Positions 6,189 through 61,660 of a DNA stretch of 64,000 nucleotides are shown here, piece by piece. The stretch lies in the NCBI GenBank assembly GCA_027493445.1, contig JAOSKU010000001.1, positions 1,803,936 to 1,867,935 of the forward strand, given 5' to 3'. The translations under genes were made by a program, and so were the position numbers. The notes below the pieces were generated by a model. That model saw only the letters and a list, made by a program, of their open reading frames with translations, ran no database searches and was not told the origin of the DNA. The DNA is from Thermoleophilia bacterium (lineage in GTDB: Bacteria; Actinomycetota; Thermoleophilia; RBG-16-64-13). Within the stretch, counting starts at the first letter, position 1; every line of letters begins with the position of its first letter.

Positions 6189-7396
6189 GAACCCTCGCCG
6201 TCTGGACCGACCCACCGTTCAGTTCCCCTTCCGGGGGGGTCGTGACCTCGGCCGAGAGCCTTATGGCCGGTCTGGCGGCCTACGCGCCCTGGGACTGGCG
6301 GGTCACCTACGCGCCCTCAGGCACGTGGTGGTTCCGCTCACTCGTGGCAAACCGCTCCGCGCGCAGCGCCGTGGTGCGGGTGGGACCACCAGGCATCTCT
6401 GGACTGCGAGCGGTGGCAGAGAATCTGGTGGGCCCGGTGGGTCGGCGACTGATCGGGGCCGCTGAGCGGATTGCGCGGACCCCAGCCGAGATCCTCCTGG
6501 CCCCGCACGTCTTCAACACTTTTACGCCCATTGGCCCGCACCCTTACGTGGCTCTGACCCCCAACGACTTCCAGCACAGGCGATTCCCCGAAAACTTCAC
6601 GCCATCGGAGCTGCGTCGCCGCATTCGGCTGTACGAGCACGCCGTCTCGCGCGCCGATCTCGTGATCACGGGCAGCCGGGCGACCCATGTCGACCTCCTC
6701 CACTTCCACCCCCAAGCCGCCGACAAGGCGTGGCTGTGGCGTTTTCCGGCCCCCGCCGATCTTCGGGTTCCGAGCGACACCGAGGTGATCCTGGCCAGGC
6801 GCCTGCTGCCCCGCGCAGCAGCCTCGCACACCATCATCTACCCGGCCCAGCTGTGGCCCCACAAGAACCACGCTACGTTGATCCGAGCGGTGGCACTACT
6901 GAGGAGCGAGCGGCGGTTGGAGGTATCGCTGGTCCTGACCGGCGCCGGACCCCAGCTTGGACCGCTACAAGACCTGTCGCGGCAACTGGGCGCGCAGGAT
7001 GCGGTCCACTTCGTGGGCAACGTGCCCCGGGGCGTGCTCTTTGCCCTGCTGGCATCGACCGATCTCGTGGCCGTGCCATCTCTCTTCGAGCAAGCCTCGT
7101 ATCCCCTTGTGGAAGCCGGCTGGTTCCAGAAGCCCATTCTGGCAGCCGATATCGTTTCGCTACGCGAGGAGCTGGCCGGCCACGAGCTGGCGCTTGTTCC
7201 CGGCGAGGATCCTCAGGCGTGGGCAGACGCCATAGAGCAAGCATTCGAAGACGACGCTCGCGCTGGCCAGCTGAGAGAGGCGGGCAGAGCCGTCCTGGCC
7301 CGACACGACCTCGCTATCCAAGCGGGCGAGTTCTGGCGGTACATGCTGCAGAAACTGAACGACACGCGCAGAGCCGGTCTGAGCTACCGCCGTTAG
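6167..7396 (+). CDS. Glycosyltransferase family 4
   Basis: C-terminal GT4 motif VPSLFEQASYPLVEAGWFQKPILAADI. It overlaps the acetyltransferase stop; an alternative GTG start lies at 6185. Confidence 0.8.
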   Translation: MAARRLVRTLAVWTDPPFSSPSGGVVTSAESLMAGLAAYAPWDWRVTYAPSGTWWFRSLVANRSARSAVVRVGPPGISGLRAVAENLVGPVGRRLIGAAERIARTPAEILLAPHVFNTFTPIGPHPYVALTPNDFQHRRFPENFTPSELRRRIRLYEHAVSRADLVITGSRATHVDLLHFHPQAADKAWLWRFPAPADLRVPSDTEVILARRLLPRAAASHTIIYPAQLWPHKNHATLIRAVALLRSERRLEVSLVLTGAGPQLGPLQDLSRQLGAQDAVHFVGNVPRGVLFALLASTDLVAVPSLFEQASYPLVEAGWFQKPILAADIVSLREELAGHELALVPGEDPQAWADAIEQAFEDDARAGQLREAGRAVLARHDLAIQAGEFWRYMLQKLNDTRRAGLSYRR

Positions 7397-17844: not shown

Positions 17845-17945
17845 TTAGGAAGAGCGCCGTAGCTATGGGGACGGGAGCGCAGGACGAGGCTCCGCAGAGG
17901 TCCCGCAGACGCTGCGGCCGGAGCTCCTCACCTGGCGGCGGAGAA
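17845..17945. repeat. About 100-nt repeat (family A), second copy at 53326-53430
   Basis: cttaggaagagcgccgtagctatggg...ggagctcctcacctggcg aligns by eye with 53326-53430. The 5' part resembles the centre of the long palindromic elements. Confidence 0.5.
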
Positions 17946-18021
17946 TACCGGCGGCCGTGGCGCGGTCGGCGGCCGGCGCATGAAAGAGGATGACTTCAGA
18001 AGGCCGGCGGCGGGCGGGGAG

Positions 18022-18417
18022 CTACGAGAGCGGCACCAGGGCCAGGTCGGTTTGAACCAAGTCCCGTCCCAGGCAGAGCAAGGGCTGGCCGGCCAGTTTG
18101 GCCACGGCGTAGCTCATGCAGTCCCCGTAGCTCAAGGCCGCAGAATGTCTGCCTTTGCCGAAGCGCAGGAACGCCTCCGTCGCTTCATCCCAATGGGCGG
18201 CCGCGAAGGGCACCACTGCGATCTCATATTCCTGAAGGAATCGAGCAAGCTTGGGGCGCGCGTCGCGATCGAGGCGGGCCGACAAGACAAGCGTGGCCTC
18301 GGTCAACGTGGGCGCCCCCACAGCCAAGGGCTCATCGCCCTCCAGCCTGTCCACCACGGCTTGGAAGCCCGGCTCGCGCAGGACAACGGCCACTAGGGCC
18401 GAGGTGTCGACGATCAT
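18022..18417 (-). CDS. vapC: VapC PIN-domain toxin (family X; paralog at 43077-43472, fragment at 38220-38600)
   Basis: MIVDTSALVAVV...PIN acidic residues. 131 aa. Confidence 0.85.
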   Translation of the reverse strand: MIVDTSALVAVVLREPGFQAVVDRLEGDEPLAVGAPTLTEATLVLSARLDRDARPKLARFLQEYEIAVVPFAAAHWDEATEAFLRFGKGRHSAALSYGDCMSYAVAKLAGQPLLCLGRDLVQTDLALVPLS

Positions 18418-18686
18418 ACGCCGTCGGAGCCGTAGCCCAGGATCTCGTCGTCGAGTGCGTCGTCATGCGGCTTGTCCAGCAGCTCAGCGGGGATATCCGC
18501 CCAGATCTCCCGCTCGAGGAAACGCCGCCGCTGGGCCGTGCGCGCAGCGCGAGACACGCGCAGTGTGAGTCGATCTCGTTTCTCCTCCAGCGCTTGCCGG
18601 ACCGCTTGGGTCTTGTTCTGACCGCTCAGCCGTGCGACCTCTTCAGCCAAGCGCTCGACGTCCGGGTTCTTGATCGTCAACGCCAT
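18414..18686 (-). CDS. vapB: VapB antitoxin (family X)
   Basis: MALTIKNPDVERLAEEVARLSGQNKTQAVRQALEE. 4-nt overlap with vapC. Confidence 0.8.
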   Translation of the reverse strand: MALTIKNPDVERLAEEVARLSGQNKTQAVRQALEEKRDRLTLRVSRAARTAQRRRFLEREIWADIPAELLDKPHDDALDDEILGYGSDGV

Positions 18687-18779
18687 GATCCCTCCGCTGT
18701 GCGCGCCTACCACCTGATGCCCATGATACCAGAATACTGAACCAATACACCAAGCAGTAACCTTGTCGCTCCTCTCTGG

Positions 18780-20423: not shown

Positions 20424-20650
20424 GTGGTCCTACTCCATGGAGCCCGGCAAACAGGCAAGAGCACCTTGGCACAGATGGTGGCCAGAGAGCAGCCGGGGGC
20501 ACGTTACCTCACGCTGGATGACCCTGTCACCCTCTCGGCCGCTCGGGCCGATCCTGCCGGTTTCCTGGCCGGCCTTCGCCAGCTCGCCATCATCGATGAA
20601 GTGCAGCGCGCGCCGGAACTCTTCCTGGCCCTGAAGGCGGGAGTTGCGGG
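20424..20650 (+). pseudogene. 3'-truncated DUF4143/COG1373 AAA ATPase (first about 75 codons only)
   Basis: VLLHGARQTGKSTLAQ Walker A and IIDEVQRAPELF, then unrelated sequence. Full-length paralogs are at 45279-46421 and 51936-53084. Confidence 0.6.
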
Positions 20651-21334
20651 GGCGGTTGGCCGCCCGTTGGGCGAGCGCTGGTGGCGTTGGAGCAGGAAGT
20701 CGCGGATCCGCCGCATCTCCCCCATGTTGAGCTCCCACATCCCATCGTTGGAGAAGGGGTGGGCGGAGAGTGAGAGGAACTTGGCGCCCTTCCGGTGACG
20801 CTCGATGATCTTCTGGATGGCACCCGGCACCTGGTCGGCTTTCGTCAAGGCCTGGGGGTCATGGCCCTTCCTGGCTATACGTCCGTTGTCTGACACGGCC
20901 ACCAAGACTTCGGTGGGACAGGAGCTGAACTCGCGCCGCACGAGACCAGCCAACCCCCTGTCCCGCAGCCTCTCGGCATGTCGCTGGAGCACGGCCCGGA
21001 GGAATTCACGCTGGCGCTCCGCCTGGAGGATCGGCGAGGGCATCCCCTGCGAGCGACGTCCGAACCGGCGCGGGCACTCCCCGTGCTCATTCACCTCGAT
21101 CTCCCCGCAGACGCTCTTGCTCTCGACGATCACCAAGCCCCAGCGGTGCAAGACCAGGTGATCGATCTGACACACGTCCCCGCCTTCCGCCAGACGAAGA
21201 TCATTGAAGACGAAGATGTCCTCGGGCGCCCGGAAGGCCCGGTCGAGGTAATGCTGTATTTGCCGCTCAGCCCGCAGGCCCGCCGCCAGCCAGCAGTCTG
21301 AAGCAGTCTTCTTGGCAACCTCTTTGATGACCAT
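20650..21334 (-). CDS. NERD (nuclease-related) domain protein, C-terminus probably replaced at junction with ATPase fragment
   Basis: FVFNDLRLAEGGDVCQIDHLVLHRWGLVIVESK. The ORF tail below about 20650 is antisense to the ATPase fragment and has junk composition. Confidence 0.65.
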
Positions 21335-38219: not shown

Positions 38220-38942
38220 ATGCAGCCCATGCTGCAGCGGGGCCGACCTCGGGGGCGGGGAGCTACGAGAGCGGCACCACGGCGAGGTCGGTTTGAGCGA
38301 AGTCCCGTCCCGGGCAGAGCAAGTGCTGGTCGGCCAGTTTGGCTACGGCGTAGCTCATGCAGTCCCGTAGTTCGGGGCCGCAGGATGCCGGACCCTGCCG
38401 AAGCGCAGGAACGCCTCCGTCGCTTCGTCCCAATGGGCGGCAGCGAAGGGCACCACTGCGATCTCGTACTCCTGAAGGAATCGAGCGAGCTTGGGGCGCG
38501 CGTCGCGATCGAAGCGGGCCGACAGCACGAGCGCGGCCTCGGTCAACGTGGGCGCCCCCACAGCCAAGGGCTCATCGCGATCGATGCGACCCTTCGTGCG
38601 CACCGTGCGGCAGATGGTGTGGGAGGACCAGGTCCTAGGAGGCCGTTGAAGAACGAAGCCCCGGCCGCCCTTCCGGCGCACGACGAGATCGACTTCGCGG
38701 TCGAGCACCTGCAGCAGAAGGAGGAGCTTGTCCACGGACCTACGGCAGTTGGTCGGGTCGAGCAGCCGGTAGAGCTGCGCGGGAGACGTCCCCAGCCGCC
38801 GAATTATCTCCCGCTTCGAGAGCGGACTCTCCGCGACGGCCCTCTCGGCCTCGAGGGCCAGGCGGTAGAGAAGGAAATCGCGTAGGTACGGGATCCGGAC
38901 GCGAGCCCATACCATCATGGAGCAGCCCACGTGCGTGGGCAT
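38220..38942 (-). pseudogene. Chimeric ORF: HTH-type N-terminal segment fused to the C-terminal two thirds of a family-X vapC, itself frameshifted
   Basis: ..SKREIIRRLGTSPAQLYRLLDPTNCRRSVDKLLLLLQVLDREVDLVV.. then ..EPLAVGAPTLTEAALVLSARFDRDARPKLARFLQEYEIAVVPFAAAHWDEATEAFLRFG. The C-terminal ..QTDLAVVPLS lies in another frame. Confidence 0.5.
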
Positions 38943-38971: not shown

Positions 38972-39908
38972 TCAGGTTCCTCTAGCTTCCAATCGCTGTC
39001 GCAAGTTCTGCACTTTCCAGGCCATGACGGGGTCCATGGATGCCCGCTCGAGCACACCCGGATACTCGGCCAGCAGTAGCACGGGGCGATACACCGCGTC
39101 CTCACCGAGCAAGCGCATGAACTCCCGTTCGGCCTCGGAACTCGAGCTCAATGGAGAGAGCCACCGCGCCACCGCCTCAAGCATGACCACGTGGCTGGGC
39201 GCCTCATCAGCTCGAAGCATCGCGAACAAAGGGTCAATGAATTCAGGTGCCGGATGGCGGAAGCGTTCCAGCGCGACCACCGGGTCTGTCACGAACGGGA
39301 ACGGGTCCGATGTGCAGATCGCTCGGACCGCGAGCGCCCGAGCAAGCGGGTCCTCCAAGAAGTCCAACACTGTGACGGCCAGCCGGTAAAGGTCGTACAG
39401 GTCCCGCGCGGCCAGGCGCTCCATCATGGCCTTGATCTTTCCGGCCACGAGTTCTGGCAGCCGCAGCGCCGGAAATGAGATCGGCGGGTCCGCGAATTCA
39501 CATGTCCGGTTTTCCGGCTCCAACAAGGGCACGCGGGCAAGGTAGCTGACGTCCACCTTCACGTGGCTACCCGGGTACTTCACGCGGTAGGTCTGACCGC
39601 TGTGCTCGTCGTTCGTACTCTGGACAAGATACCCGAGTGCTCCCACAACATCGCGGCATATCCACCTCCGCCCGCATGGAGCGCATGCCTTTCGCATCGG
39701 CGGCGCCCACGAACATGAGGTCGATGTCGACCGATAGCCTTGGCGCACGATCATGAAAGACGTTGAGCGCCGTCCCGCCGTGTAGAACAAAGACATTGCC
39801 CAACATCGGGTCCTCCCTGAGCGCCGAGAGTACCTCGAGCAGGCGCTCGACTTTGTCAACAACAATGGGGGCGAATCCGATCGGTAGAGTGAGAATGGGC
39901 CGGGTCAT
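38972..39908 (-). CDS. abiEii: AbiEii/AbiGii-family nucleotidyltransferase toxin (type IV TA), frameshift near 39700
   Basis: NTase motif VFVLHGGTALNVFHDRAPRLSVDIDLMF in ORF 39567-40067. C-terminal ..KIKAMMERLAARDLYDLYRL in ORF 38972-39865. The start overlaps the abiEi stop (ATGA). Confidence 0.7.
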
Positions 39909-40714
39909 CCTCGAGTCCACTCGCGATACGGTAGATCGGCCGGAACGTAGAGACGCCAACGGGCAACGAATTCCCGTTTGGACTCGCCAATGGCGGGAAG
40001 GAGCCGATAGGTCCCCCTGCCGAGCAAATCGCGCATCTCCTCGAGCACGGATGTGTCGACGCGCCAACTGTCGGCGAACATCTCGAGTGTCCAGCCGGCG
40101 CGGGCAGCCAGCGTCGGAGAGCCCAGCAGTCGCGCGTAGGCCGCGACTCGCTCGGGCGACATCGATGTGAACCCGCCGACACTGCGTAGCAGTTCTTCGA
40201 GCCCTCCGGCAAGACTCGGGTCGCGAAGGCAGTCGACGAGCGTGCGCTCCTTGGTGCTCACCGGCACTATCGCCTGCCCCGCTCTTATGCGTGTCACGAA
40301 CCCGCTCAACGTAGCTGAAGATCCCGGCACCAGAGGCGGCGCTACGCGACGGAACCGATAGCCGCGTACCTCGAAGTCACGTATCTTGGTGACAGAGGTG
40401 AAATACACGGTCCGCAGGGGCGAATGCGCAACGCCGTGCGCCTCGAGGGCTGTGTGGTGAGTAAGGACGGCATCTTTGGCAGCCTTCGCGGCTACCAGGT
40501 AGACATTGGGGACCCGATCGCGATACACGCCAATATTCGATGCATACAGACCCCGCCTCACTCGATAGGCCGAACCCCGCGCCACAGCGTTTTGCAGGTT
40601 TGCATAGCGAGTGCGTTCTGATACCGTCGGATCGACGCTAGCCACGTACTCCTCGAGGGTGAACACTTCATGGTCCTCGAGGAAACGGAGCGTCGCCGAG
40701 GCCTTGGTGTTCAT
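39905..40714 (-). CDS. abiEi: AbiEi-family antitoxin/transcriptional regulator
   Basis: 269 aa COG5340-like protein immediately upstream of the AbiEii gene. The promoter has the ATACGTAT palindrome and a TATTATAAC -10 element close to the ATG. Confidence 0.75.
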   Translation of the reverse strand: MNTKASATLRFLEDHEVFTLEEYVASVDPTVSERTRYANLQNAVARGSAYRVRRGLYASNIGVYRDRVPNVYLVAAKAAKDAVLTHHTALEAHGVAHSPLRTVYFTSVTKIRDFEVRGYRFRRVAPPLVPGSSATLSGFVTRIRAGQAIVPVSTKERTLVDCLRDPSLAGGLEELLRSVGGFTSMSPERVAAYARLLGSPTLAARAGWTLEMFADSWRVDTSVLEEMRDLLGRGTYRLLPAIGESKREFVARWRLYVPADLPYREWTRG

Positions 40715-42026: not shown

Positions 42027-42293
42027 CTACCTGGCGCTGGGTCGAGTGGCGGTCGAGAGGCAGCCGGCCAGATCGATGAACCGAGCCTTGCCCACGGTGG
42101 TCAGTTGATCACCCATGGCCTTGGCGGGCTTCCCTCTCAGCGTGACCAGAGCCTCGCTGGGATAAACAGGCTCCATGTTGCTCGTGAGCGGCACCACCTG
42201 CACCCGGTTCAGGTGCCGGTTCGAGGCGTCGTTGCTGATGATGAGCGCCGGGCGTTCTTTGCGAACGTTTGCGCCGTACGAGCATCTGGTATC
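42027..42293 (-). pseudogene. MazF/PemK toxin lacking N-terminus and with replaced 3' end
   Basis: ..GANVRKERPALIISNDASNRHLNRVQVVPLTSNMEPVYPSEALVTLRGKPAKAMGDQLTTVGKARFIDLAG.. A 90-nt near-identical copy of its 3' part is at 51518-51606. Confidence 0.5.
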
Positions 42294-42539
42294 ATGTACG
42301 GCATGGACGAGACGAAGCTTACGGTACGTATCCCGCGGGAAACGCTCGACGAAGCCAAGCGCTACGCTCGCGAGCACGACACCACGGTGAGCCGGTTGGT
42401 CATCACGCATCTCGAGCACTTGCGCCGAGACGACGACGCGCTCGCCGACGCACCCATCACGCGACGGCTGGTCGGTGCGCTCGCTCCCGAAGCCTCCATC
42501 CAGGAGTACCGGGACTACCTCGAGCGCAAGTATGCCTAG
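42294..42539 (+). CDS. Ribbon-helix-helix antitoxin
   Basis: MYGMDETKLTVRIPRETLDEAKRYAREHDTTVSRLVITHLEHL. Confidence 0.65.
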   Translation: MYGMDETKLTVRIPRETLDEAKRYAREHDTTVSRLVITHLEHLRRDDDALADAPITRRLVGALAPEASIQEYRDYLERKYA

Positions 42540-43023
42540 GAGGCCCCGGGTCCTGCTCGATGTCAACGTGGTCCTCGACGTGCTCCAACGTCGCGAGCCC
42601 TTATTCGAGGATTCCGCCTCCCTCATGGCCGCCGTGGAATCGGGCCGCTGCGAGGGTCTGATGGCCGCGCACACCGTCACCACCCTGTTCTACCTAGTGA
42701 CCAAGCACGCCTCCGCTGCAGTTGCGCGCGTCCAGGTCGTCGAGTTGCTCCGACTGCTCAAGGTGGCCCCCGTGGATCAAGGGGTGCTGGAAGAGGCGCT
42801 GGCTCTCCCGTACGGCGATCTCGAAGACAGCGTGCAGATGGCAGCCGCCGAGCGCGCCGGTGCGGAATACTTGGTGACGCGCGACCGAGCGGGCTATGCC
42901 GCCGGTCCCCTCCCCACCCTCACGCCCGGTGAGCTCCTAGGGCCTGGTGGGCGAGGTCTAGCTACCACACGGCGGAGAAGAAGGATGCGATTTCGCAGCC
43001 GGAGCCACGTAAGCGCCCCCTAG
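42532..43023 (+). CDS. PIN-domain toxin
   Basis: MPRRPRVLLDVNVVLDVLQRREPLFEDSASLMAAVESGRCEG... Overlaps the RHH stop. Confidence 0.75.
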   Translation: MPRRPRVLLDVNVVLDVLQRREPLFEDSASLMAAVESGRCEGLMAAHTVTTLFYLVTKHASAAVARVQVVELLRLLKVAPVDQGVLEEALALPYGDLEDSVQMAAAERAGAEYLVTRDRAGYAAGPLPTLTPGELLGPGGRGLATTRRRRRMRFRSRSHVSAP

Positions 43024-43076: not shown

Positions 43077-43472
43077 CTACGCGAGCGGTACCAGGGCGAG
43101 GTCGGTTTGAGCGAAATCCCCTCCCAGGCAGAGCAAAGGCTGGCCGGCCAGCTTGGCCACGGCGTAACTCATGCAGTCCCCGTAGTTCAAGGCCGCGGGA
43201 TGTCGGCCCTTGCCGAAGCGCAAGAAGGCCTCCGTCGCTTCGTCCCAATGGGCGGCGGCGAAAGGCAAGACTGCGATCTCGTACTCCTGAAGGAATCGAG
43301 CCAGCTTGGGACGCGCATCGCGATCGAGGCGGGCCGACAAGACGAGCGTGGCCTCAGTCAACGTGGGCGCCCCCACAGCCAGGGACTCATCGCCTTCAAG
43401 ACGGTCCACTACGGCTTGGAAGCCCGGCTCACGCAGGACAACGGCCACCATGGCCGAGGTGTCGAGGATCAT
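43077..43472 (-). CDS. vapC: VapC PIN toxin (family X paralog)
   Basis: 131 aa, closely similar to 18022-18417. Confidence 0.85.
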   Translation of the reverse strand: MILDTSAMVAVVLREPGFQAVVDRLEGDESLAVGAPTLTEATLVLSARLDRDARPKLARFLQEYEIAVLPFAAAHWDEATEAFLRFGKGRHPAALNYGDCMSYAVAKLAGQPLLCLGGDFAQTDLALVPLA

Positions 43473-43741
43473 ACGCCGTGGGGGCCGTAGCCCAAGATCT
43501 CGTCGTCGAGCTCTTCGTCGTGCGGCTTATCCAACAGCTCAGCGGGGATGTCCACCCAGATCTCTCGCTCCAGAAAGCGCCGCCGCTGGGCCGTGCGCGC
43601 GACGCGAGACACGCGCAGCGTGAGTCTGTCTCGTTTCTCCTCGAGCGCCTGCCGTACGGCTTGGGTCTTGTTCTGGCCGCTCAACCGCGCGACTTCTTCA
43701 GCCAAGCGCTCGACCTCCAGGTTCTTGATCGTCAACGCCAT
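43469..43741 (-). CDS. vapB: VapB antitoxin (family X paralog)
   Basis: MALTIKNLEVERLAEEVARLSGQNKTQAVRQALEEKRDRLTL. Confidence 0.8.
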   Translation of the reverse strand: MALTIKNLEVERLAEEVARLSGQNKTQAVRQALEEKRDRLTLRVSRVARTAQRRRFLEREIWVDIPAELLDKPHDEELDDEILGYGPHGV

Positions 43742-45152: not shown

Positions 45153-45217
45153 AAGGACAACGCATGGCGCCGCCCAGTGCGCTCCGGCGGCCGAGGTTTC
45201 TTTTCCGACAGCCTCCG
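45153..45217. repeat. Half-copy (one arm) of the long palindromic repeat element; near-identical to 55283-55352
   Basis: gaggacaacgcatggcgccgcccagtgcgctccggcggccgaggtttctttt(t)ccgacagcctcc. Confidence 0.6.
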
Positions 45218-45278
45218 AGGTAAGACATCATAGCTCGTCGCTCACGAGCAGGCACGAAGGCGCGAGGCCTTGATCGTC

Positions 45279-46421
45279 CTAGACCAAGCGCCGCAGCAAC
45301 CCTTCCAAATCTACGACGGTGGCTTCGGTGGTGCCTCCTAGGCCCACCTTGTACTCTCGGCTCAGCACCGGAACCACCACCACCGCCTCCGCTTCCGAGT
45401 AGGCGCGTTTGAGCGCGGCGAGCCCGCTCACATCCCGAAGGGACGCTTCAGACCAGGTGCATTCGACGGCCAGTAGACCGCGCCCCCGGCGCATGACCAC
45501 GAAATCCACTTCCTGCCCGTGCTTCGTCCGCCAGTATCGCGGTTTTACCAAGGGAGCGCGGGCATGGATCTCGTTCAAGACGTAGTGCTCCCAGAAGCAG
45601 CCATAGTCTTCCGGTCGCGGCGAGGCCAGGCCCCGGGCGTGACGAACAAAGCCGGTATCAAGCGCATAGACCTTGGGGGCCTTGACAATCTCCGAGGCCC
45701 GACGGGTGGAGAAGGGAGCAAGGACATGGGCCACCCTCGTTTCCTGGAGCACCTGCAGGTAGTTCGAGATCGTGGGACGGCTCGCCTCGCAGGGACCGGT
45801 GTAAGTCGTCGCCTCAAAGATTCCTCCGCTGTTCAGCAGCAGCATCTCCGTGAAGCGCCGAAACGAACTGCGCCGCTCAATGCGGAAGAGCTCCTGGATA
45901 TCTCGAGCCCAGAACGCATCGAGCCATTCCTCGAACTCTGCCGCGGCGCTATCTGTCCCCCCGAGAAAGAAGGGGGGAACCCCGCCGTTCCAGAGGCGGG
46001 TCTCCAGACTTCCGCCGAACTCCTCAAGATCACGGGACATCATGGGCGTCAACCACACCGCTACTTTGCGCCCCGCGAGGGTATCCGAGAATTTGGCCGT
46101 AGCGGCCAGGGTCGAGGAGCCGGTCGCCACCACCTTGACATAAGGGTAGTGATCCGCTGCGATCTTGAGCACCTCGGAGGGACGGGGCAGCCGGTGGATC
46201 TCGTCAAGCACAATACGCTTGCCCCGAAGACCCGCCAGAAACCGCTCGGGCTCAGCCAACTGCCGCCGCACAGTGGGCAGCTCACAGTCGAAATACTCGG
46301 CAGAATCCAAACTCTGACAGAGAGTCGTCTTGCCGATGCGGCGGACGCCAAACAGCCACACCACCGAACGCCGCCGCCACCCTTCTTCGATTCGTTCTAT
46401 CCAGAAGCTTCTTTGAACCAT
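45279..46421 (-). CDS. DUF4143/COG1373 AAA+ ATPase
   Basis: Walker A GVRRIGKTTL and Walker B RIVLDEIHRLP. 380 aa. Confidence 0.8.
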   Translation of the reverse strand: MVQRSFWIERIEEGWRRRSVVWLFGVRRIGKTTLCQSLDSAEYFDCELPTVRRQLAEPERFLAGLRGKRIVLDEIHRLPRPSEVLKIAADHYPYVKVVATGSSTLAATAKFSDTLAGRKVAVWLTPMMSRDLEEFGGSLETRLWNGGVPPFFLGGTDSAAAEFEEWLDAFWARDIQELFRIERRSSFRRFTEMLLLNSGGIFEATTYTGPCEASRPTISNYLQVLQETRVAHVLAPFSTRRASEIVKAPKVYALDTGFVRHARGLASPRPEDYGCFWEHYVLNEIHARAPLVKPRYWRTKHGQEVDFVVMRRGRGLLAVECTWSEASLRDVSGLAALKRAYSEAEAVVVVPVLSREYKVGLGGTTEATVVDLEGLLRRLV

Positions 46422-47524: not shown

Positions 47525-48335
47525 GTGACAGCGGGCACCATCTTTGACCGAACGCGCACACCGCTCACGGTATGGTTCACCGCCTGCTGGCTTCTCGCCA
47601 CCGGCAAGGACGGCATCTCGGCGCTCAGCCTGAAACGAGCCCTGGAGATGGGCTCCTACCAGACCGCCTGGGCTATGCTGCATCGGCTGCGCTCGGTGCT
47701 GGTGCGCCCGGGCCGGGACCGGCTGGCCGGGGTGGTGGAGGTAGATGAGACCTACATCGGCGGTGAGGAGCCGGGGCTGCCCGGATGGGGCCGCTCCCCG
47801 ATGCCTCGGCCGCCTCGCTGCACGCCTTCGTGCAAGCGCACGTCAACCCGGCGCCAAGGTCATCACCGACGGCTGGCAGTGCTACCGCGGGCTGGAGAAG
47901 CTCGGCTACGCCCACGAGCGCCGCAGCCAACGCGCCGCCCGGGTCGGCGGGAAGGACCCCGGCGATCTGCTGCCCGCTTCACACCGGGTCGCCTCGCCGG
48001 CCAAGCGCTGGCTGCTGGGCACCCATCAGGGCTCGGTGAACAACGCCCACTTGGCCAGCTACTTAAACGAGTTCGTGTTCCGCTTCAACCGCCGGAGCTC
48101 GCGCAGCCGCGGGATGCTGTTCTACCGGGTGCTCGATCTCGCCGTGGCCCACGACCCGGTGCGCTACCAGGACCTCATCGCCGGAGCGCAGCCCCGGGCA
48201 GTACCGCCCCCGCCACCCCAGGCGCGCGGGCATCCCCGAGCTTGGAGCGCCCTCCAGCGAACCGCCCGTGGAGAACTGCCGATCTCGATTCCTCCGGTTA
48301 AATGGATACCCCCTCAGTGCGGAAAACGGGGCTAG
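47525..48335 (+). mobile_element. IS1595-family transposase gene, 5'-decayed and internally frameshifted (ORFs 47525-48301 and 47745-48335)
   Basis: SVTAGTIFDRTRTPLTVWFTACWLLATGKDGISALSLKRAL (ISXO2-like N region) and DGWQCYRGLEKLGYAHERRS...NNAHLASYLNEFVFRFNRR (C region). No intact zinc ribbon upstream. Confidence 0.65.
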
Positions 48336-49551: not shown

Positions 49552-50970
49552 GGGTCAAGTCCCGTAATGTGGTGTAGCAGCCCGGCAGCCGAGACCTGAG
49601 TAGCAAATCGGCCACTGGGCGTCCTAGAATCGTCGAGGGTTCCGCCAAGAACATCGACGAGAGGAGCATCACAGTGGCCGACCAGTACAGCATGACGCCT
49701 GCCGAAGCCGCGGGCAAGGTCCTTGCATCCGAGCATGGCGACTTCCTGAGAGAAGCCGTGCATTGCGTGCTCAGGGAGATCATGGAGGGCGCGGTGAGCG
49801 CGGTCACAGGCGCGAGCTTCGGCGAACGTTCCCCCGAGCGGGCCGTCCAGCGCAACGGCTACCGGCCCCGGGGGTTCGACACCCGCGTGGGCACCATCGA
49901 GCTCGCCATCCCCCGTCTCAGGCGGGGCAGCTACTTCCCGAGCTTCCTCGAGCCGAGACGCCGAAGCGAACAGGCCCTTGTCGCGGTGGTGGCCGAAGCC
50001 TACGTCAACGGGGTCTCGACGCGCAAGGTGGAGCGCCTGGTGGAGCAGCTCGGCATCGAGTCTATGAGCCGCTCCACCGTCTCCCGGCTCTGCACGGTGC
50101 TCGATGAGCAGGTCAGGCTCTTCCGGGAGCGCCCCTGGAGGGCCGCTACCCCTACCTGTGGCTCGACGCCCGCATCGAGCGGGTGCGTGAGGAGGGGGTG
50201 TCCGCCAGAAGGCCCTCATCGTCGCCTACGGCGTCCACGAGACCGGGCGCAGAGAGGTTCTTGGCACCGACGTGGGCCAGGCGGAGAGCGAGGCCTTCTG
50301 GCGAGACTTCCTGCGTTACCTCGTGGCCCGGGGTCTCACGGGCGTCTTGCTCTGCGTCTCTGATGCCCACCCCGGCCTGAAGAAGGCCATCGCTCAGGTG
50401 CTCGGCTGCCCCTGGCAACGCTGCACCGTCCACTTCCTCCGGGACATGAAGGGGCATGTGGGGCGCTCGCAGCAGCAGATGGTCGCGGCGGCAGTGCGTC
50501 AGGTCTTCCAGGCCGAGGGTCTGGCCCAGGCCCGTCTCGTTCTCGGCGAGGTGGTCGCTCGGCTCGAGGGGCCGGCTCTCAAGGTGGCCCGTCTGCTCGA
50601 GGACGCAGAAGACGACCTCCTTGCCTTCCTTGACTTCCCGCGCGAGCACTGGTCCAAGCTGCGCTCGACCAACCCGCTCGAGCGCATCAACCGGGAGATC
50701 GGCAGACGAAGCGACGTGGTCGGCATCTACCCGAACGACCAGAGCCTCCTCCGGCTCACCGGGGCCCTCCTTTGCGAGCAAAACGACGAGTGGCTCGTCT
50801 CCCGCCGGTACCTCTCGGTCGAGTCCCTGGCGAAGCTCTACCACGACGACACCATCGACGCCGACGAGATCACCCTGTCCATCCATCCTGCACGGAAGGA
50901 GGTGGCCCCGGCGGCGTAGCCGGGAGTCCGTAGCGACGATCGGGAGCTACACCACAAAGTGGGACTTGAC
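49552..50970 (+). mobile_element. IS256-family insertion sequence with about 30-bp terminal inverted repeats and 8-bp target-site duplication CTGATGAC
   Basis: Left end GGGTCAAGTCCCGTAATGTGGTGTAGC and right end (reverse complement) GGTCAAGTCCCACTTTGTGGTGTAGC. CTGATGAC is present at 49544-49551 and 50971-50978. Confidence 0.8.
49674..50919 (+). CDS. IS256-family (mutator-type) transposase; two -1 homopolymer frameshifts near 50150 and 50215
   Basis: Three overlapping ORFs join into ..YRPRGFDTRVGTIELAIPRLRRGSYFPSFLE..PYLWLDARIERVREEGG-VRQKALIVAYGVHETGRREVLG..CVSDAHPGLKKAI.. Confidence 0.8.
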
Positions 50971-51935: not shown

Positions 51936-53084
51936 CTATCCGGGGTAGTCCCAGGCCGGGCCGAGATCGCGCACGGGAACCACCCAGATATCCTCCGCCA
52001 GCCGATAGGCCGTGCGGCCGGGATACACGACCCACAGACCGGCCAACTCAAGGTCCTCCATCGCGGCCTTCATGGAGCGGGTGAGTCGCGGCGCGTCCTG
52101 GTACTTGCACTCCACTCCCCACGTGCGACCACCCCACTGCCAGAAGAGATCAAGCTCAGCCCCCGCGTGGGTGCGCCAGAAGTAGAGTTCGTGGTCTTCG
52201 CGACCCAGCGCACGGCCGACCACCTCCAGGGCGAAGCCCTCCCACGAGGCACCCAACGCGGGGGAAGACTGCAGCTGCTCGAGTGATTCCAAGGAGAGCA
52301 GGGCATGAAGGAGGCCGCTGTCGCGCAGGTAGAGCTTGGGCCGGCGCACAACGCGTTTGCCGACGTTCGCCGCCCAGGGCTGAAGAAGGCGGATCATGAA
52401 CGCGCCCTCGAGGATCTCGCAATACCTGCGCACCGTCATGTCGGACACGGCGAACGAGCGCGCCAACTCGGAGTAGTTGAGCATCTGACCGTGGTAGTGG
52501 CTGAGCATGGTCCAGAAGCGACGCAGGGTGCGCGCCGGGATGGTGATGCCGAGCTGCGGGATGTCCCGCTCGAGGAAGGTCGAGATATACTGCCGGCGCC
52601 AGACGAGGCTTTCTTCTTCCGTGGATGCCAGGAACGAGCGCGGCAGTCCGCCTCTCAGCCAGAGCGTGGTGATGCTCTCCGGCCCTACGTCGCTCACGCG
52701 GAAACCGCTCAGTTGATGGAAGGCGATACGGCCCGCCAGTGTCTCTGAGCTCTGTCGCAGGAGGTCACGAGACGCGCCTCCCAGGATGAGATACTTCTGA
52801 CCCTCGCCGCGGTCGACCAGGTAGCGAAGCAGAGGGAAGAGGTCGGGCAGGCGCTGGATCTCATCGATAACGATCAAACCCCTCAGCTCTTCGAGGGCCA
52901 ATTGCGGTTGCTCCAACCGGGCGAGATCGCGCGGGTTCTCGAGGTCGAAGGAGTGGTCCGCTTTGAATGATCGGGCCAGCGTTGTCTTCCCGCACTGGCG
53001 TGGCCCCAGGATGGCCGTGACCGGAAAGGCGGCCAAGAGCTTGGAGACGGCCTTGAAGTCCTGTGTCCGCAGGATGAGGCTCAT
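51936..53084 (-). CDS. DUF4143/COG1373 AAA+ ATPase
   Basis: Walker A GPRQCGKTTL and Walker B LIVIDEIQRLP. 382 aa. Confidence 0.8.
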   Translation of the reverse strand: MSLILRTQDFKAVSKLLAAFPVTAILGPRQCGKTTLARSFKADHSFDLENPRDLARLEQPQLALEELRGLIVIDEIQRLPDLFPLLRYLVDRGEGQKYLILGGASRDLLRQSSETLAGRIAFHQLSGFRVSDVGPESITTLWLRGGLPRSFLASTEEESLVWRRQYISTFLERDIPQLGITIPARTLRRFWTMLSHYHGQMLNYSELARSFAVSDMTVRRYCEILEGAFMIRLLQPWAANVGKRVVRRPKLYLRDSGLLHALLSLESLEQLQSSPALGASWEGFALEVVGRALGREDHELYFWRTHAGAELDLFWQWGGRTWGVECKYQDAPRLTRSMKAAMEDLELAGLWVVYPGRTAYRLAEDIWVVPVRDLGPAWDYPG

Positions 53085-53325: not shown

Positions 53326-53430
53326 CGGTGGTGCTTTAGGAAGAGCGCCGTAGCTATGTGGGCGGGCACGCAGGACAAGGCCGCCCAGAGGTCCTGCGGA
53401 CGCGGCGGCCGGAGCTCCTCACCTGGCGAC
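53326..53430. repeat. Second copy of repeat family A
   Basis: Aligns with 17845-17945. Confidence 0.5.
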
Positions 53431-53463
53431 GAGGATGCCGACGGCCTTGACGCCACCAGGCCC

Positions 53464-53639
53464 GCGCTTAGCAGGCTGCTGAAAAACGAAACCTCGGCCG
53501 CCGGACAGCACTGGGAGGCGTCGTGCGTCGTCCTCCGTCGCGCCCGTAGCGCTGCTACGAGCGCTCCCTGCGTCCTTGCCTGGCGCGTTCCCAGCACACC
53601 CCGGCGGCGAAGCGTCATTCTTCAGCAGCCCGTTAGCGC
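53464..53639. repeat. About 176-nt long imperfect palindrome (element B); arms about 87 nt around centre CGTAGCGCTGCTACG
   Basis: gcgcttagcaggctgctgaa...cgtagcgctgctacg...ttcagcagcccgttagcgc. The reverse complement of the right arm matches the left arm. The same family is at 55188-55358 (C, opposite orientation) and as a half-copy at 45153-45217. Confidence 0.6.
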
Positions 53640-54076
53640 ATGAGGTCCTGCGCGGCAGCCGCCCGCCGGATACCGGGGAGCCCGTCGAAATGTCCGTCGA
53701 AGCTCGCGACCACCGGCATTCCGCCGGGCTCGGGGCCGACGCCCCGCACCGCCGCAAACGCGGCCAGATACGCGTCCACCAGGGGGACGGGGCGGTCCCG
53801 CAGCACCTCCACCATCCGCCAAAGCACGTCACGCTGGTCGAACGCGAGCCCGGGGCACTCGAGTAGCGACGCCAGCAGCGCCGCCGCCGCCCCCCGCTCC
53901 AGACCGAGCACACGCAGAAGCACGAACCCCGTCTCCACCACGATCACCGCAGGAACGAAGAGCTCCACCTGCGCCTGCGCAGCGGCCGCGAAGAGGTCGC
54001 GGGCGGCCGCGGCCGACTCCGGAGGCTCCCCCGTCAGAAAGCGGACGATGACGCTCGTGTCGAGGTAGACCCTCAC
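53633..54076 (-). CDS. vapC: VapC PIN toxin
   Basis: VRVYLDTSVIVRFLTGEP.. GTG start overlapping the vapB stop. Confidence 0.75.
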   Translation of the reverse strand: MRVYLDTSVIVRFLTGEPPESAAAARDLFAAAAQAQVELFVPAVIVVETGFVLLRVLGLERGAAAALLASLLECPGLAFDQRDVLWRMVEVLRDRPVPLVDAYLAAFAAVRGVGPEPGGMPVVASFDGHFDGLPGIRRAAAAQDLMR

Positions 54077-54572: not shown

Positions 54573-54895
54573 GGATTTGCCGCGGACGTCATGCCTGGCC
54601 TTACAGCTCGGGCTCCCCTCTTGACGCTATGTCGTTTCGCGCGAATCGAGACCGGAGTGCTGCTGCGAAGGCTCCAGCGCGGTGAGCTGATCGGGCTGCC
54701 GCATTCGAGACCCATGGCGTCGATCGGGCCGCGATGTCACGAGCTGCGCATCGTCGACAGAACGCGACCTGGCGTGTGGTCTACCGCATCGACAGCGACG
54801 CCATCGTGATGATCGACGCGTGCAGGCGCCGGCTCCGGGAGTACGATGCCGTAGGCGGGAAGGGGTGAGCGTCATGGACAAGACCAAGAAGAGCC
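54567..54895 (+). CDS. higB: HigB/RelE-family toxin, frameshifted near 54780
   Basis: ..GPRCHELRIVDRTRPG.. then in the +1 frame RVVYRIDSDAIVMIDAC.. Confidence 0.5.
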
Positions 54896-55191
54896 GTCTC
54901 GAGGCCGCCGGCTGGCGGGTCGGGGACGCGGCCGACTTCCTCGGAATGAGTCCTGAGGAGGCCGCGTTTGTCGAACTCAAGCTGGCCCTCGCGGCTTACC
55001 TTCGAGACGTGCGTACGCAGCGCGGCTGGACGCAGGCACAGGTCGCCCGGCAGCTCGGTTCCAGCCAATCCCGCGTCGCCAAGATGGAAGCGGCGGATGG
55101 ATCCGTCTCCGTCGACCTGCTCGTGAAGTCGCTTCTAGCCCTCGGTGCCTCGCGCAAGGAAGTGGGCCGGGTCATCGCACGGGCGGCCTAG
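54874..55191 (+). CDS. higA: HigA-type XRE-family HTH antitoxin
   Basis: MDKTKKSRLEAAGW...TQRGWTQAQVARQLGSSQSRVAKME. Confidence 0.7.
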   Translation: MDKTKKSRLEAAGWRVGDAADFLGMSPEEAAFVELKLALAAYLRDVRTQRGWTQAQVARQLGSSQSRVAKMEAADGSVSVDLLVKSLLALGASRKEVGRVIARAA

Positions 55192-55358
55192 CAGGCTGTC
55201 GGGAAATGACGCTTCGCCGCCGGAGTGCGCTGGGTACGCGCCAGGCAAGGACGCAAGGAGCGCTCGTAGCAGCGCTACGGGCGCGACTGAGGACAACGCA
55301 TGGCGCCGCCCAGTGCGCTCCGGCGGCCGAGGTTTCTTTTTCCGACAGCCTCCTGGCA
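55188..55358. repeat. Long imperfect palindrome (element C), centre CGTAGCAGCGCTACG, between convergent higA and MNT
   Basis: This is the reverse-complement relative of element B. Confidence 0.6.
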
Positions 55359-55805: not shown

Positions 55806-56348
55806 CTACCATGCGTATCGCCGTGGTGCGCCTCGAGGCCGAAGACTCCCGACCACCGTCTCGAAAGGAGGCAGGTCGGGAACGAGAGGTTCAAGCCACT
55901 GGTTCCAAGTGCTCTGGACGTGAGCAAGCATGACAGGCTGAAAGAAGTCTTCCGCACCCATGAACGTCACCTGACGGACGGCACATTTCGCGGCCACGAA
56001 CGACGCAAAGGCTGCGAAGTCCATCTGATCTCCGTAAGAGCCGAGGATGCGCCATAGATCATAGAAATCCCGGGCACGCGACCGACTCCAGCCCCGCTCA
56101 TTCAGCATTTCGACGTGCTGAAGGATAGCTCGAAGCTTCTCGGCGACAATCTCCTCCATTGAATACACGCGTACCGTCGCAGTGAGAGCCTCACCGTACT
56201 CGTGGAGTATCGCCCGGGACGGTGTCGGCTTGAACACCTGTTCGTCCATTGAGATCTCGACCATAACATGGGTGTGTGGTTGCCGGTGCCATGGGAAACG
56301 GGCTCTGACCGAGAAGGCTTCTTCAAGCCGACTGCGCAGGGGTCTCAT
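55806..56348 (-). pseudogene. AbiEii toxin lacking N-terminal nucleotidyltransferase core
   Basis: Only the C-terminal ..YSMEEIVAEKLRAILQ..RARDFYDLWRIL.. region is present. The GGTAL...DIDF motif is absent. Confidence 0.6.
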
Positions 56349-56965
56349 GACCCCGTTCTTCCCGGCAGATTCACCCGGATCATCCAGCGACGGTTGTATG
56401 GACCGCGACGGGGCCCGCTTGGGTCCAGATTCCGATAGCCGACGATAGGCAGCCCGGCGAGAGCGCGCAGCTTGTTCGGCAGAACCCCTGATTCTTCGAG
56501 CACCCAGCCCAGCCGCTTGGCCGTCGCCACATCAAGCCTGAGGGCATAGTCGATGATCCTGGAGAGGTCCAGGCGCTCGCCGCGCACCTCAAAAGCGTGA
56601 AGGCTCTCTGAAAAGTCACCGCAGTATTGAGGCCTTGACAACCCATCGAGCAGCGTGCGTTCGGGATCGGTTATCGCAACGCGAGCCTCGCCGATCCAGA
56701 CCTGTTCCGTCCCGAAGAACCATTCGCGCTTGGTCTGTACGAACTGGTAGATCGTGCCGGCAACGGAAAACCCGTCCGCCCCGCCGGCATCCCGGTGACC
56801 TCGAAAACGAGGTACAGGGACGTCCAACGGGGTCAGGACGAACACTCTCCGGGGAATCTGTTCGGTGAGGCCGTGATGGTGCATGGCCGACCAATGGCTG
56901 ATGGCGCTTGGACGAGCCAGGGCCATGGCTATTTCGAACTCATGAACAGGCGCAACACCCGGCAT
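56345..56965 (-). CDS. abiEi: AbiEi-family antitoxin/regulator
   Basis: 206 aa. ATGA overlap with the truncated abiEii. Confidence 0.7.
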   Translation of the reverse strand: MPGVAPVHEFEIAMALARPSAISHWSAMHHHGLTEQIPRRVFVLTPLDVPVPRFRGHRDAGGADGFSVAGTIYQFVQTKREWFFGTEQVWIGEARVAITDPERTLLDGLSRPQYCGDFSESLHAFEVRGERLDLSRIIDYALRLDVATAKRLGWVLEESGVLPNKLRALAGLPIVGYRNLDPSGPRRGPYNRRWMIRVNLPGRTGS

Positions 56966-57375: not shown

Positions 57376-58191
57376 CTACGTGCTCAGCAACCCGGCCGCA
57401 ATTTCAAAGGCCTCGTCGAAACCCAGCGAGTCAACCACCAGGTAGGCGAGGGACGACTCCCAACTGGCGCGGTACTCGGCTCGCCGGGCGCGGAACCGGG
57501 CGGCCGCCCCCTCCAGAACCAAAGCCTTGCGTTTGGTCTTGCGCGGCAACGCCTCGAGCGCGGCACCTGTGTCCGCTCCTCGGCGCACCAATTGCGCGAT
57601 GTCATAGACGTCACGGGCGATGGCGTAGCGTCGCTGTCCGCCAACCGCGCGCAGCTTCTCTGCGAGAATCTCCTCGAGCGCGTAGCATTCGACCGACGAC
57701 ACCCCCAGGCCGGCCGCGTCGTCGTACTCGTGCATGAGCGCGCGGTTGACCGCGTCGAACACGAGCTCCTCATCGGCACTCAAATGGAACTGCATGTTGG
57801 GCGGATTCGGCGTGCGCAAAGCCCCGCGGTAGGGCACCTTGATCTCGATTGACTCGCGACCGTGCTCATCGTTTTGGACGATCGTCCTCGCGTCTTCCAT
57901 GAGCAATCGAATGCCCGCACTGCCTGCCCTCGGCGCTGCGTTCTGCACCAGCGATAGCGCAACGGCAGGAGTCAAGCGACCCGCCACCGTGAAGTCCAAG
58001 TCCTCCGAGAAGCGGTAGTCGCCGAAGTGGCACTTGCGAAGGCAGGTCCCGCCCTTGAACACCCAGCGCGCTGACGAGAGATCCGGCGACAGGGCCCACA
58101 AGACAACCCCTAGCGCATGGTCGCGATCGATCACGGCGGGGTCCACGCCCAGCCTGCGGGCAAGGGACTTGACGGAGGCCTCTGGTATCAC
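57376..58191 (-). CDS. abiEii: AbiEii nucleotidyltransferase toxin (intact)
   Basis: VFKGGTCLRKCHFGDYRFSEDLDFT...YALEEILAEKLRA..ARDVYDI. Confidence 0.8.
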   Translation of the reverse strand: MIPEASVKSLARRLGVDPAVIDRDHALGVVLWALSPDLSSARWVFKGGTCLRKCHFGDYRFSEDLDFTVAGRLTPAVALSLVQNAAPRAGSAGIRLLMEDARTIVQNDEHGRESIEIKVPYRGALRTPNPPNMQFHLSADEELVFDAVNRALMHEYDDAAGLGVSSVECYALEEILAEKLRAVGGQRRYAIARDVYDIAQLVRRGADTGAALEALPRKTKRKALVLEGAAARFRARRAEYRASWESSLAYLVVDSLGFDEAFEIAAGLLST

Positions 58192-59018
58192 GCCCGGTCA
58201 TCTCCGTCGAATCCGCCCGCGTTCACCTGCAGGTTCCACCTACGCAGTGTTCGCCCGGTATGGGGACCGCCTCGCTCGAGCGAGGTGAAGCCCGCACCGA
58301 TCCGCGCCCGCCATGAGTCGAGCCACTCCTCCGCTCCCGGAAGTGCCGCGTTCTCCGCCAGAAAACCCAGGCGCTTGGGCACTGTCCCGCTGCTGAAACG
58401 CGTCATGTACGCACTGAGCTTCTGGAGGTCAAGCTGCGACCACGCCGCACGCAATGCGGGCATGACCTCGCCGATGCCCCCCGCGAGATCGGGGCGATCC
58501 ATGACGTCGACGATCGTGCGCTCGGGATCCGTCACCCGAACACGCAGGCCCCCACGCCATTCCTCGCTGATACCGAAAACCCTGACGGGCTTCAACGTGA
58601 CGAACTTGTAGGGCACGCCCAAGATGATCGCATGCGACTTGAACCGGCGCACCGGAGTCACGAAGAACTGCGTGCGTGGCAACTGTGTGGTCCATCCCCA
58701 GTGACGGACGGCGGTCCAGTAGGCCGCGCCCCCCTCCGGCACGAGGAGGCTGCCGATCACGAGGGGGTCCTCGCTCCAGTCACGATCGGTCCCAGCCGCG
58801 AGCGGAACGAGCATGTACTTGCCCCGCTCCAGTCGTTCGAGCCATCCTTTGCGCTCCAGTTGGGCCAAGGAGTTGCGTGCGTATTGCCCACCGCCCCAGA
58901 ACCCAGCCGCCTGCTCGAACGAGAAAACGTCCCGCCCTGCTCCGGCCATGGTAGCAAGGAACTCGGCCTCTCGCGGTCCAAGTTCCGTTATAGTTCGAGC
59001 CATGTTAATAACCTCCAA
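58188..59018 (-). CDS. abiEi: AbiEi antitoxin (intact)
   Basis: 276 aa. RBS GGAGG before the ATG. Confidence 0.8.
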   Translation of the reverse strand: MEVINMARTITELGPREAEFLATMAGAGRDVFSFEQAAGFWGGGQYARNSLAQLERKGWLERLERGKYMLVPLAAGTDRDWSEDPLVIGSLLVPEGGAAYWTAVRHWGWTTQLPRTQFFVTPVRRFKSHAIILGVPYKFVTLKPVRVFGISEEWRGGLRVRVTDPERTIVDVMDRPDLAGGIGEVMPALRAAWSQLDLQKLSAYMTRFSSGTVPKRLGFLAENAALPGAEEWLDSWRARIGAGFTSLERGGPHTGRTLRRWNLQVNAGGFDGDDRA

Positions 59019-60835: not shown

Positions 60836-61660
60836 ATGGAACGACCGGTTCGCACTCTATCCAAGCGGGAGGCGGAGCTCGTCAGCTGGCTTGAAGCCGA
60901 GCGGCGGCTGAGCATCAGCCTGCCCGAGGTGAGGCGCACTCTGGGCTGGTCGGACTCCGTGGCTCGCAATACACTGTCACGGCTAGCCAAGAAGGGGTGG
61001 CTCCGTCGCACCGCCCTTGGCAGGTACGAGGCCGTTCTCGCCGAAACGGGCGGGTGGTCTGTCCCCAATCCCTGGGCGGCGCTGAGCACTTGGGGGCAGC
61101 GGTACTACGTCGGATTCAAGTCGGCCGCATATGAGCATGGTCTCACAGCCGATCGTCCGGGCAGTGTTCAGACGTGTGTGCCGACGGGCGCCCGCAGGCC
61201 GCTTTCGTGGGGCGACATTCCCATCGTCCTCATCTACCTCCCCAAGTTCGACTCGGCCGGGACGCAGTACAGGAAGCTGCATCAATTCGAGGTTGAGATC
61301 GCGTCGCCAGAGAAGATATTGGTCGACGGGGCTAGCCTTCCAGGACGCATGGGGGGTGTGCTCGGGCTCGCTCGGATCGTTGACCGCGCCGCGAACCAAG
61401 TCGACTGGGCGACCGTAGTTCAGCTCACGACTGCGTCACCCGGCGGGCGGGTGAGCCTGCGGCGGCTCGCCGCCTTGCTGGAGATCCTCGGCCGGGAGGT
61501 GCCGGATCCCCTGGCTAATGGGGCGACGGCGCGGCTGGGTGAGTCGGCACTCTTCCTCGGCGCGAGGCGAACGTACGGCGCACGCGGCGAGCGGCTGTCC
61601 CGCTGGCAGGTGATCGTCAATGTCGATCCGGCTGCGGTCCTCGAGGAGCTGCGACGCTGA
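60836..61660 (+). CDS. abiEi: AbiEi antitoxin
   Basis: 274 aa. LSKREAELVSWLEAERRLSISLPEV.. winged-helix N-domain. Confidence 0.75.
   Translation: MERPVRTLSKREAELVSWLEAERRLSISLPEVRRTLGWSDSVARNTLSRLAKKGWLRRTALGRYEAVLAETGGWSVPNPWAALSTWGQRYYVGFKSAAYEHGLTADRPGSVQTCVPTGARRPLSWGDIPIVLIYLPKFDSAGTQYRKLHQFEVEIASPEKILVDGASLPGRMGGVLGLARIVDRAANQVDWATVVQLTTASPGGRVSLRRLAALLEILGREVPDPLANGATARLGESALFLGARRTYGARGERLSRWQVIVNVDPAAVLEELRR

Follow-up and report, generated by a model that had tools for sequence, protein, structure and literature searches.

A family of palindromic repeats at gene ends in Thermoleophilia and other Actinomycetota: probable mobile elements with a 4-bp YTAR target duplication and a hairpin that favors one strand

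The window analyzed in this study is a stretch of 64,000 nucleotides from a Thermoleophilia bacterium; from about position 18000 to 64000 it is a dense toxin-antitoxin/defense island, in which many modules are paralogs of one another, with nucleotide identities of 65-98% (Table 1). No tRNA genes were found in the window. Within the island, we identified two full copies (B and C), one truncated copy (D), and one end fragment of a hairpin-forming element. A filter-free covariance-model scan of all 64 kb detected nothing beyond these four, and no long palindromes were found at other gene ends in the window. Copy B is next to vapC, which in turn adjoins a MazE-type antitoxin gene; copy C is next to the higA-like gene and is convergent with a nucleotidyltransferase gene, which is followed by AbiEii/AbiEi; DUF4143 ATPase genes adjoin B and D. 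The original prediction had placed the copies just after the stop codons of these neighbors, and our analysis confirms this: the vapC stop, TAA at 53633-53635 on the minus strand, falls inside the terminal four bases of B (53633-53636), and the higA stop, TAG at 55189-55191, falls inside those of C. Both genes read into the left end of their element, and both stops are element bases 2-4. B and C, which are mutually inverted, bracket a 1.55-kb segment with vapBC, the higA gene, and a remnant upstream of it, and the inner ends of both copies are left ends. This arrangement resembles a MITE-bounded composite unit and may be one; two independent insertions at stop codons are equally possible.

Table 1. 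Copies of the hairpin element, surrounding genes, and other repeats in the window, with distant relatives of the element in other genomes.
Feature	Sequence	Position	Strand	Details
Full copy B	Window	53468-53636	- (consensus orientation)	169 nt; covariance model 171 bits on - vs 53 bits on +
Full copy C	Window	55188-55356	+	169 nt; covariance model 184 bits, E = 7e-37, model positions 1-169
Truncated copy D	Window	45153-45219	+	3' arm only; covariance model 29.5 bits, E = 1e-4
End fragment, about 35 nt, CTAGGAGGCCGTTGAAGAACGAAGCCCCGGCCGCC	Window	38636-38670	-	Pattern match with 1 mismatch; BLAST E = 2e-4; weak covariance-model score, 15 bits
vapC, PIN-domain toxin gene (neighbor of B)	Window	53633-54076	-	Pfam PIN, E = 3e-12
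higA-like helix-turn-helix antitoxin gene, XRE-type (neighbor of C)	Window	54874-55191	+	Pfam HTH_31 / HTH_3
vapBC	Window	18022-18713; 43077-43741		
AbiEii/AbiEi	Window	38972-40714; 55806-56965; 57376-59018		
AbiEi	Window	60836-61660		
MazF	Window	42027-42683		
NERD	Window	20504-21334		
DUF4143 ATPases	Window	45279-46421; 51936-53084		
IS256/Mutator-type transposase gene	Window	50272-50919		C-terminal half; truncated
IS1595-type fragment	Window	47745-48335		Truncated
Separate repeat, about 119 nt	Window	17845-17963; 53336-53453	Same strand	85% identical
Relative, Roseithermus sacchariphilus	CP030158.1 (L053)	7008-7176		
Relative, Clostridia MAG	L007	6580-6747		
Relatives, Clostridia MAG	L009	6480-6649; 6700-6868		
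Relative, Clostridia MAG	L042	2557-2724		
Relative, Clostridia MAG	L066	2826-2994		

The limits of B and C were set by alignment to 45 other copies. In C, the element proper spans about 55192-55352, with CTAG on its left flank (55188-55191) and CTGG on its right flank (55353-55356), the latter being a decayed copy of the duplicated target; B is flanked on the minus strand by an exact 4-bp direct repeat, CTAA...CTAA. The two full copies are 86-89% identical in inverse orientation, and copy D, which begins at the conserved AGGAC motif, runs to the right end, and has CGAG there instead of CTAG, matches the 3' half of C (query positions 116-179 of C) at 98% identity. The repeats that had been noticed by eye are real. 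The end fragment corresponds to a right end in reverse complement, beyond which the sequence is unrelated; similar end fragments occur in three loci of other genomes (L013, L049, and L075). A shorter repeat had also been thought to be related to these copies. The pair does exist, about 119 nt long, with each copy downstream of a minus-strand vapC gene and the copy at 53336 also upstream of a 66-aa ORF and a DUF4143 ATPase gene; the proposed relation to the hairpin element is wrong, and we rejected this repeat as a member of the family because the covariance model does not match it and no copy of it is present among the first 79 fetched loci (L001-L079).

Rather than being limited to these copies and lacking structural conservation, the outcome that the original prediction had named as its refutation, the element has many further copies and shows covariation. 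Public genomes and metagenomes contain well over 200 more copies, mostly from uncultured Actinomycetota. When one genome per species was searched with the 25-nt pattern of the palindrome centre, at least 79 genome loci were found, and the hosts among the matches listed are nearly all uncultured Actinomycetota (Thermoleophilia, Gaiellales, Solirubrobacterales, or unclassified). BLAST within those 79 listed loci recovered 75 copies, 47 of them full length at 74-90% identity. The MAG MFD04716.bin.2.61 carries at least 24 copies on four contigs, and two other MAGs have at least 10-11 loci each. A core pattern that excluded the window-type apical hairpin matched at least 120 metagenome loci, mostly from soil; in the metagenome copies listed, the apical hairpin varies in sequence with its pairing kept, and the core GAGGCAAGGACGCAGGGAGCGC ... 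GCGCGACYGAGGACGC is nearly invariant. Copies matched by BLAST only in mid-element are also full-length hairpins of about 170 nt, with the same core and very different outer stems. Plasmid BLAST with the whole consensus or with a 42-nt end gave chance-level matches only, and a scan of viral contigs found no copies. The Rfam search that had been proposed as a check (Rfam 15) gave no match at the gathering score in the whole window and none on the elements at E <= 10. Our literature searches also returned nothing relevant on this family; it is apparently undescribed and probably represents a new MITE family with unusual structural conservation.

The length of the element is nearly constant: 169-171 nt in 44 of 45 copies, the other measuring 183 nt, and 166-174 nt in 89 of 93, with a mode of 169. 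The element is short and has no gene of its own; in the consensus, two of the three frames entering at the left meet a stop codon within 15 nt. Some members of the family are truncated or have lost interior sequence, one example being a 61-nt mini copy (L134, 346-406) with two terminal stems between CTAG and CTAG, an interior deletion of about 110 nt, and a full copy 1.3 kb away. Members of about 203 nt (L081, L085, L088, L099, L160, L168, and L175) and members with an enlarged apical region (L122 and L172) have an extra hairpin in the 3' arm or the apical loop; all of them keep the G+A-rich core. Outside Actinomycetota, we found weaker full-length relatives of equal length in the complete genome of Roseithermus sacchariphilus and in several Clostridia MAGs (Table 1). 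These hairpins of 168-170 nt have in common with the window type the apical arrangement GCGC-N-CGTAGC-NGC-GCTACG-N-GCGC and the same favored strand; their remaining sequence differs, and their G+C content is much lower (46-60%). Judged from these sequence features, the relatives suggest a superfamily spanning phyla.

RNAalifold predicts one hairpin with 56 pairs, and the whole element folds to about 80 bp. Fold prediction, which had also been proposed as a check, places both full copies of the window far below shuffled sequences: -65 kcal/mol for C folded as DNA (z = -6.7) and -104.1 kcal/mol for the minus strand of B folded as RNA (z = -7.7), the plus strand of B reaching -83.4 kcal/mol. The strand on which the hairpin of B had been read is the weaker folder of the two. 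The description of B as an almost perfect inverted duplication was an overstatement: in DNA terms, the arms are about 75% complementary. In the 45 window-type copies, 96.4% of the cells are paired, and 20 of the 56 pairs show double changes (9.6 +/- 1.8 in shuffles). In a broad set of 93 copies, 94.2% of the cells are paired, compared with 72.7% after shuffling and 35-41% with the partners slid, and 45 of the 56 pairs show double changes, with 1022 double-change cells versus 288 +/- 17 in shuffles, counts that are somewhat inflated by the fitting of this broad alignment (A3) to the covariance model. According to these models, the predicted hairpin is kept by compensatory changes, and this covariation supports the structured RNA of the original prediction insofar as a structured single strand is conserved. 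The most conserved part is not the stem but an internal region, in which GGAC is opposite GGAC twice and GA is opposite GA once more; in the modeled fold, tandem G-A pairing is possible there on just one of the strands. The terminal stems differ strongly among subfamilies, and the centre is the most conserved.

The repeated modules of the island and the position of imperfect palindromes at the 3' ends of small toxin-antitoxin genes would also be expected of integron attC sites in a toxin-antitoxin cassette array, and attC sites likewise act as strand-specific folded single strands. However, a RYYYAAC...GTTRRRY core pair is missing from the stem base, the words GTTGAAG and CTTCAAC being in the wrong order and not conserved, and a conserved centre with a variable base is the reverse of attC. 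Moreover, the 64 kb hold only two full copies, in opposite orientation, no integrase gene is present among the window ORFs scanned, and elsewhere the copies are scattered singly. Core sites, conservation pattern, and distribution together refute this reading, to which we assign practically no probability. The genes beside other copies are ordinary (asd, thyX, prfA, acpP, and a GlnRS-like gene), as are those between clustered copies (SpoIIE phosphatase, asd, thyX, and prfA), and a search of the ORFs in the first 79 genome loci (about 0.5 Mb) found no protein family that recurs beside the element. The link to toxin-antitoxin genes that the window had implied is therefore incidental, since elsewhere copies adjoin housekeeping genes.

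When each strand is folded separately, the model strand comes out as more stable in 45/45, 23/23, and 91/91 copies, by about 16-21 kcal/mol, and it is also the better folder in the 7/7 distant relatives folded (Roseithermus, Clostridia MAGs, and a Solirubrobacterales MAG). The hairpin pairs include 555 G-U versus 46 A-C. Genes read into 34 left ends and 36 right ends (8 and 13 in a smaller count), and neither local GC skew nor gene strand is significantly associated with orientation (p = 0.10 and 0.31, respectively). Since the orientation relative to neighboring genes is random, the asymmetry is unlikely to serve neighboring mRNAs, and a stage in which the element itself is single-stranded is the likelier reason for it; we lean towards a functional single-stranded form. 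These same data bear on the alternative of a structured RNA selected by the host at mRNA 3' ends, such as a terminator, a 3' exonuclease block, an RNase III site, or a protein-binding element, for which dispersal would be secondary. It would account for the strong covariation, for a near-invariant internal loop compatible with tandem G-A pairs, for a helix in which G-U is tolerated and A-C is not, for a length that is constant across phyla, and for the avoidance of divergent promoter regions (head-head placement in 1/35 copies). With random orientation, however, half of the mRNAs would carry the weaker strand; in addition, no T-run or other conservation is found outside the element, no Rfam family matches, turnover between related species is high, and a target duplication is present, as described below. 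We consider host selection unlikely. An intrinsic (rho-independent) terminator was rejected, as no base outside the element is conserved on either side and the orientation relative to genes is random, and the bidirectional terminator of the original prediction, like any role in the neighboring mRNA, is not supported.

The ends of the element are sharply defined. In an alignment with 35-nt flanks, conservation is 30-40% outside the element and, on both sides, jumps to 70-99% precisely at CTAG, and the terminal four bases are mostly CTAG but also CTAA, TTAG, and TTAA. Both ends read NTAN in 49 copies; in these, the left and right words agree at the first base in 45 copies (36.8 expected, p = 5e-5) and at the fourth base in 37 (27.3 expected, p = 5e-4). 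Two observations bear on the nature of this agreement. First, the non-palindromic end pairs that are identical comprise four CTAA/CTAA, three TTAG/TTAG, and one CTAC/CTAC, and complementary-but-not-identical pairs number 0; because the informative matching pairs are all identities, with no complements, the terminal four bases are direct repeats and not the foot of the stem. Second, matched end pairs of different kinds occur inside one sequence subfamily, which favors simple duplication. The data fit an element proper of 161 nt plus a 4-bp YTAR target-site duplication. A TA-only duplication of the IS630/mariner type was dropped in favor of 4 bp, as the outer bases of the flanking four-base words match too. 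Terminal inverted repeats are also present: AGGCTGTTGAAG pairs with CTTCAACAGCCT, other subfamilies have equivalents, and the terminal helix is 97% paired.

Related genomes differ in where they carry the element. The same gene junction is filled in L069 and empty in L016, and another is filled in L021 and empty in L003; L006 and L012 have copies on different sides of acpP, and L020 and L031 have one flank in common with the element in opposite orientations. In the closest pair (L071/L049, with 93% identical flanks), the empty site has no TA. The presence/absence pairs compared, all of them between species with flanks 73-93% identical, gave no clean empty site with a single YTAR. Copy number, sharp ends, 4-bp flanking direct repeats, and these differences between related genomes back the mobile palindrome of MITE type that the original prediction had offered as one option, and we conclude that the element is probably a mobile non-autonomous repeat with a YTAR duplication.

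Mobility could also have another basis, namely that of a REP/REPIN-type element moved as single-stranded DNA by an HUH tyrosine transposase (RAYT or IS200/IS605-like TnpA) that recognizes a hairpin on one strand. [quoted passage not shown] Nevertheless, the flanking four bases are direct repeats that co-vary within a subfamily, like the product of a staggered cut, and HUH elements are not known to make such a duplication. The conserved end is CTAG and not an unpaired GTAG or CGTC tag; where the window subfamily has an apical GTAG, others have ATAG or ATAT; the unit is a single one of 169 nt and not two REPs of 20-40 nt; no recurrent neighbor gene, hence no flanked RAYT, is present in the first 79 genome loci; and orientation has no significant link to GC skew or gene strand. 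We hold movement by an HUH enzyme to be quite improbable.

For the MITE reading, the mechanism that we propose is as follows. A 161-nt imperfect palindrome without a gene would be moved by a transposase supplied from elsewhere in the genome; we infer such action in trans because YTAR is the signature made by IS5-type DDE transposases, the target duplications of IS5 being 5'-YTAR-3' (PMC5009759). In these hosts, which are rich in G+C, sites containing TA are scarce, and YTAR contains TAG or TAA, so that stop codons would be frequent and tolerated targets; the duplication would rebuild the stop codon and leave the upstream gene intact. Insertion into YTAR, often the stop itself, would explain why copies, such as those at vapC and higA, coincide exactly with gene ends. 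In keeping with the presence of TAG or TAA in YTAR, about a quarter of the element ends supply the stop of a neighbor: 70 of 276 ends (138 elements) hold the stop codon of a coding-like ORF, and about 79% of the ORFs reading into the element stop in the terminal four bases, versus the one third expected by frame.

The identity of the mobilizing enzyme is a more tentative matter: from the target signature, an IS5/IS701-type transposase is a possible candidate. The IS701 family also duplicates YTAR in ISfinder, and the element ends begin with GAGG or CAGG, presumably resembling the "Ga/g" ends listed for the IS5 group. The truncated IS256/Mutator-type and IS1595-type fragments of the window (Table 1) are unlikely partners, since neither family is known to make YTAR duplications. 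In 1.23 Mb of fetched flanks, searches for end sequences and for inverted end pairs 500-3000 bp apart found no autonomous IS with matching ends and yielded only truncated copies, pairs of separate copies, and the 61-nt mini copy.

Two features sit badly with a plain MITE driven by a DDE transposase. Variable ends around a conserved centre are the reverse of what is expected when such an enzyme reads conserved terminal repeats, and IS5-type transposition is not known to require a strand-specific hairpin. One strand would act while single-stranded, either as ssDNA or as a transcript, and its role would be in the propagation or control of the element itself and not in the expression of its neighbors. 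A more specific version, which we regard as doubtful, is that the active form is a folded single strand of one polarity, either a mobile-element ncRNA whose G+A-rich loop is a protein-binding or processing site, or an ssDNA-hairpin transposition substrate that makes a 4-bp duplication; we know of no insertion-sequence family for which the latter combination has been described. If this version were true, a molecular ruler would lie behind the length of about 169 nt that is kept in Actinomycetota, Clostridia, and Rhodothermales alike.

Among known systems, the closest in form are the bacterial MITEs that fold into long hairpins, namely ERIC/IRU (127 bp), YPAL/RU-2 (168 bp), Correia/NEMIS, and RUP (review PMC2229807). 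Like them, the element is shorter than 200 bp, has no gene, and has inverted ends, TA at its termini, a target-site duplication, and many dispersed intergenic copies whose transcripts are predicted to form long stem-loops; its size is almost equal to that of YPAL/RU-2. In contrast, no sequence similarity to these MITEs was detected, the hosts are G+C-rich Actinomycetota whereas most described MITEs are A+T-rich, and the duplication is a 4-bp YTAR where described hairpin MITEs have TA. The element also differs in that the middle of its hairpin is conserved and not the ends, with deep covariation and one strand consistently favored. The Tourist-type MITEs of eukaryotes (PIF/Harbinger superfamily), which are related to IS5 and make a 3-bp TWA duplication, resemble it by analogy only: they too are short, highly palindromic, and non-autonomous, with a specific target duplication containing TA, and the link in Tourist is an IS5-like transposase. 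With IS5 itself, the element has the 4-bp YTAR duplication in common (PMC5009759); it differs in having a hairpin over its whole length, where IS5 has only short terminal repeats, and in having no transposase gene and no autonomous relative in the fetched flanks. With the GTAG/CGTC-tagged REPs and REPINs, it has in common that these are palindromic extragenic repeats, mostly downstream of genes, with ends that often give a TAG stop (PMC3733652, PMC3116915), and it differs from them in the single 169-nt unit with a 4-bp duplication, in the lack of an unpaired GTAG/CGTC tag, and in having no RAYT near the first 79 loci. The main text of the survey of GTAG/CGTC REPs makes no mention of Actinobacteria (PMC3733652).

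Soil Actinomycetota, a major group with few cultured members, carry these repeats in abundance, and the repeats offer a clean case of a transposon whose target preference allows it to land on stop codons without harm to the gene. The reason why a MITE keeps, across phyla, a hairpin that favors one strand, has a fixed length, and contains an invariant purine-rich internal loop could reveal an RNA function or an unrecognized requirement of transposition, and since Roseithermus sacchariphilus is cultured, has a complete genome, and carries a relative, this question is accessible to experiment. The repeats are also relevant to annotation pipelines, as they create spurious ORFs and supply real stop codons, and they break short-read assemblies. 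Two Logan contigs from run SRR25580096 (L080 and L201), which encode exactly the ATPase and the vapC of the window, both end inside copy B, and the one with the exact vapC protein breaks 32 nt into the element. Exact-protein look-ups of the neighboring genes for element-free strain variants returned only short contigs from one sample, and the higA-like protein had no record.

It is also worth mentioning two observations on the sequence of the ends. In the broad consensus (alignment A3), both ends of most subfamilies, when entered from outside, read CTAGGAGG, a stop codon with a GGAGG similar to a Shine-Dalgarno sequence immediately after it. On the model strand, the sequence of the right end is CCUCCUAG, similar to the anti-Shine-Dalgarno sequence.
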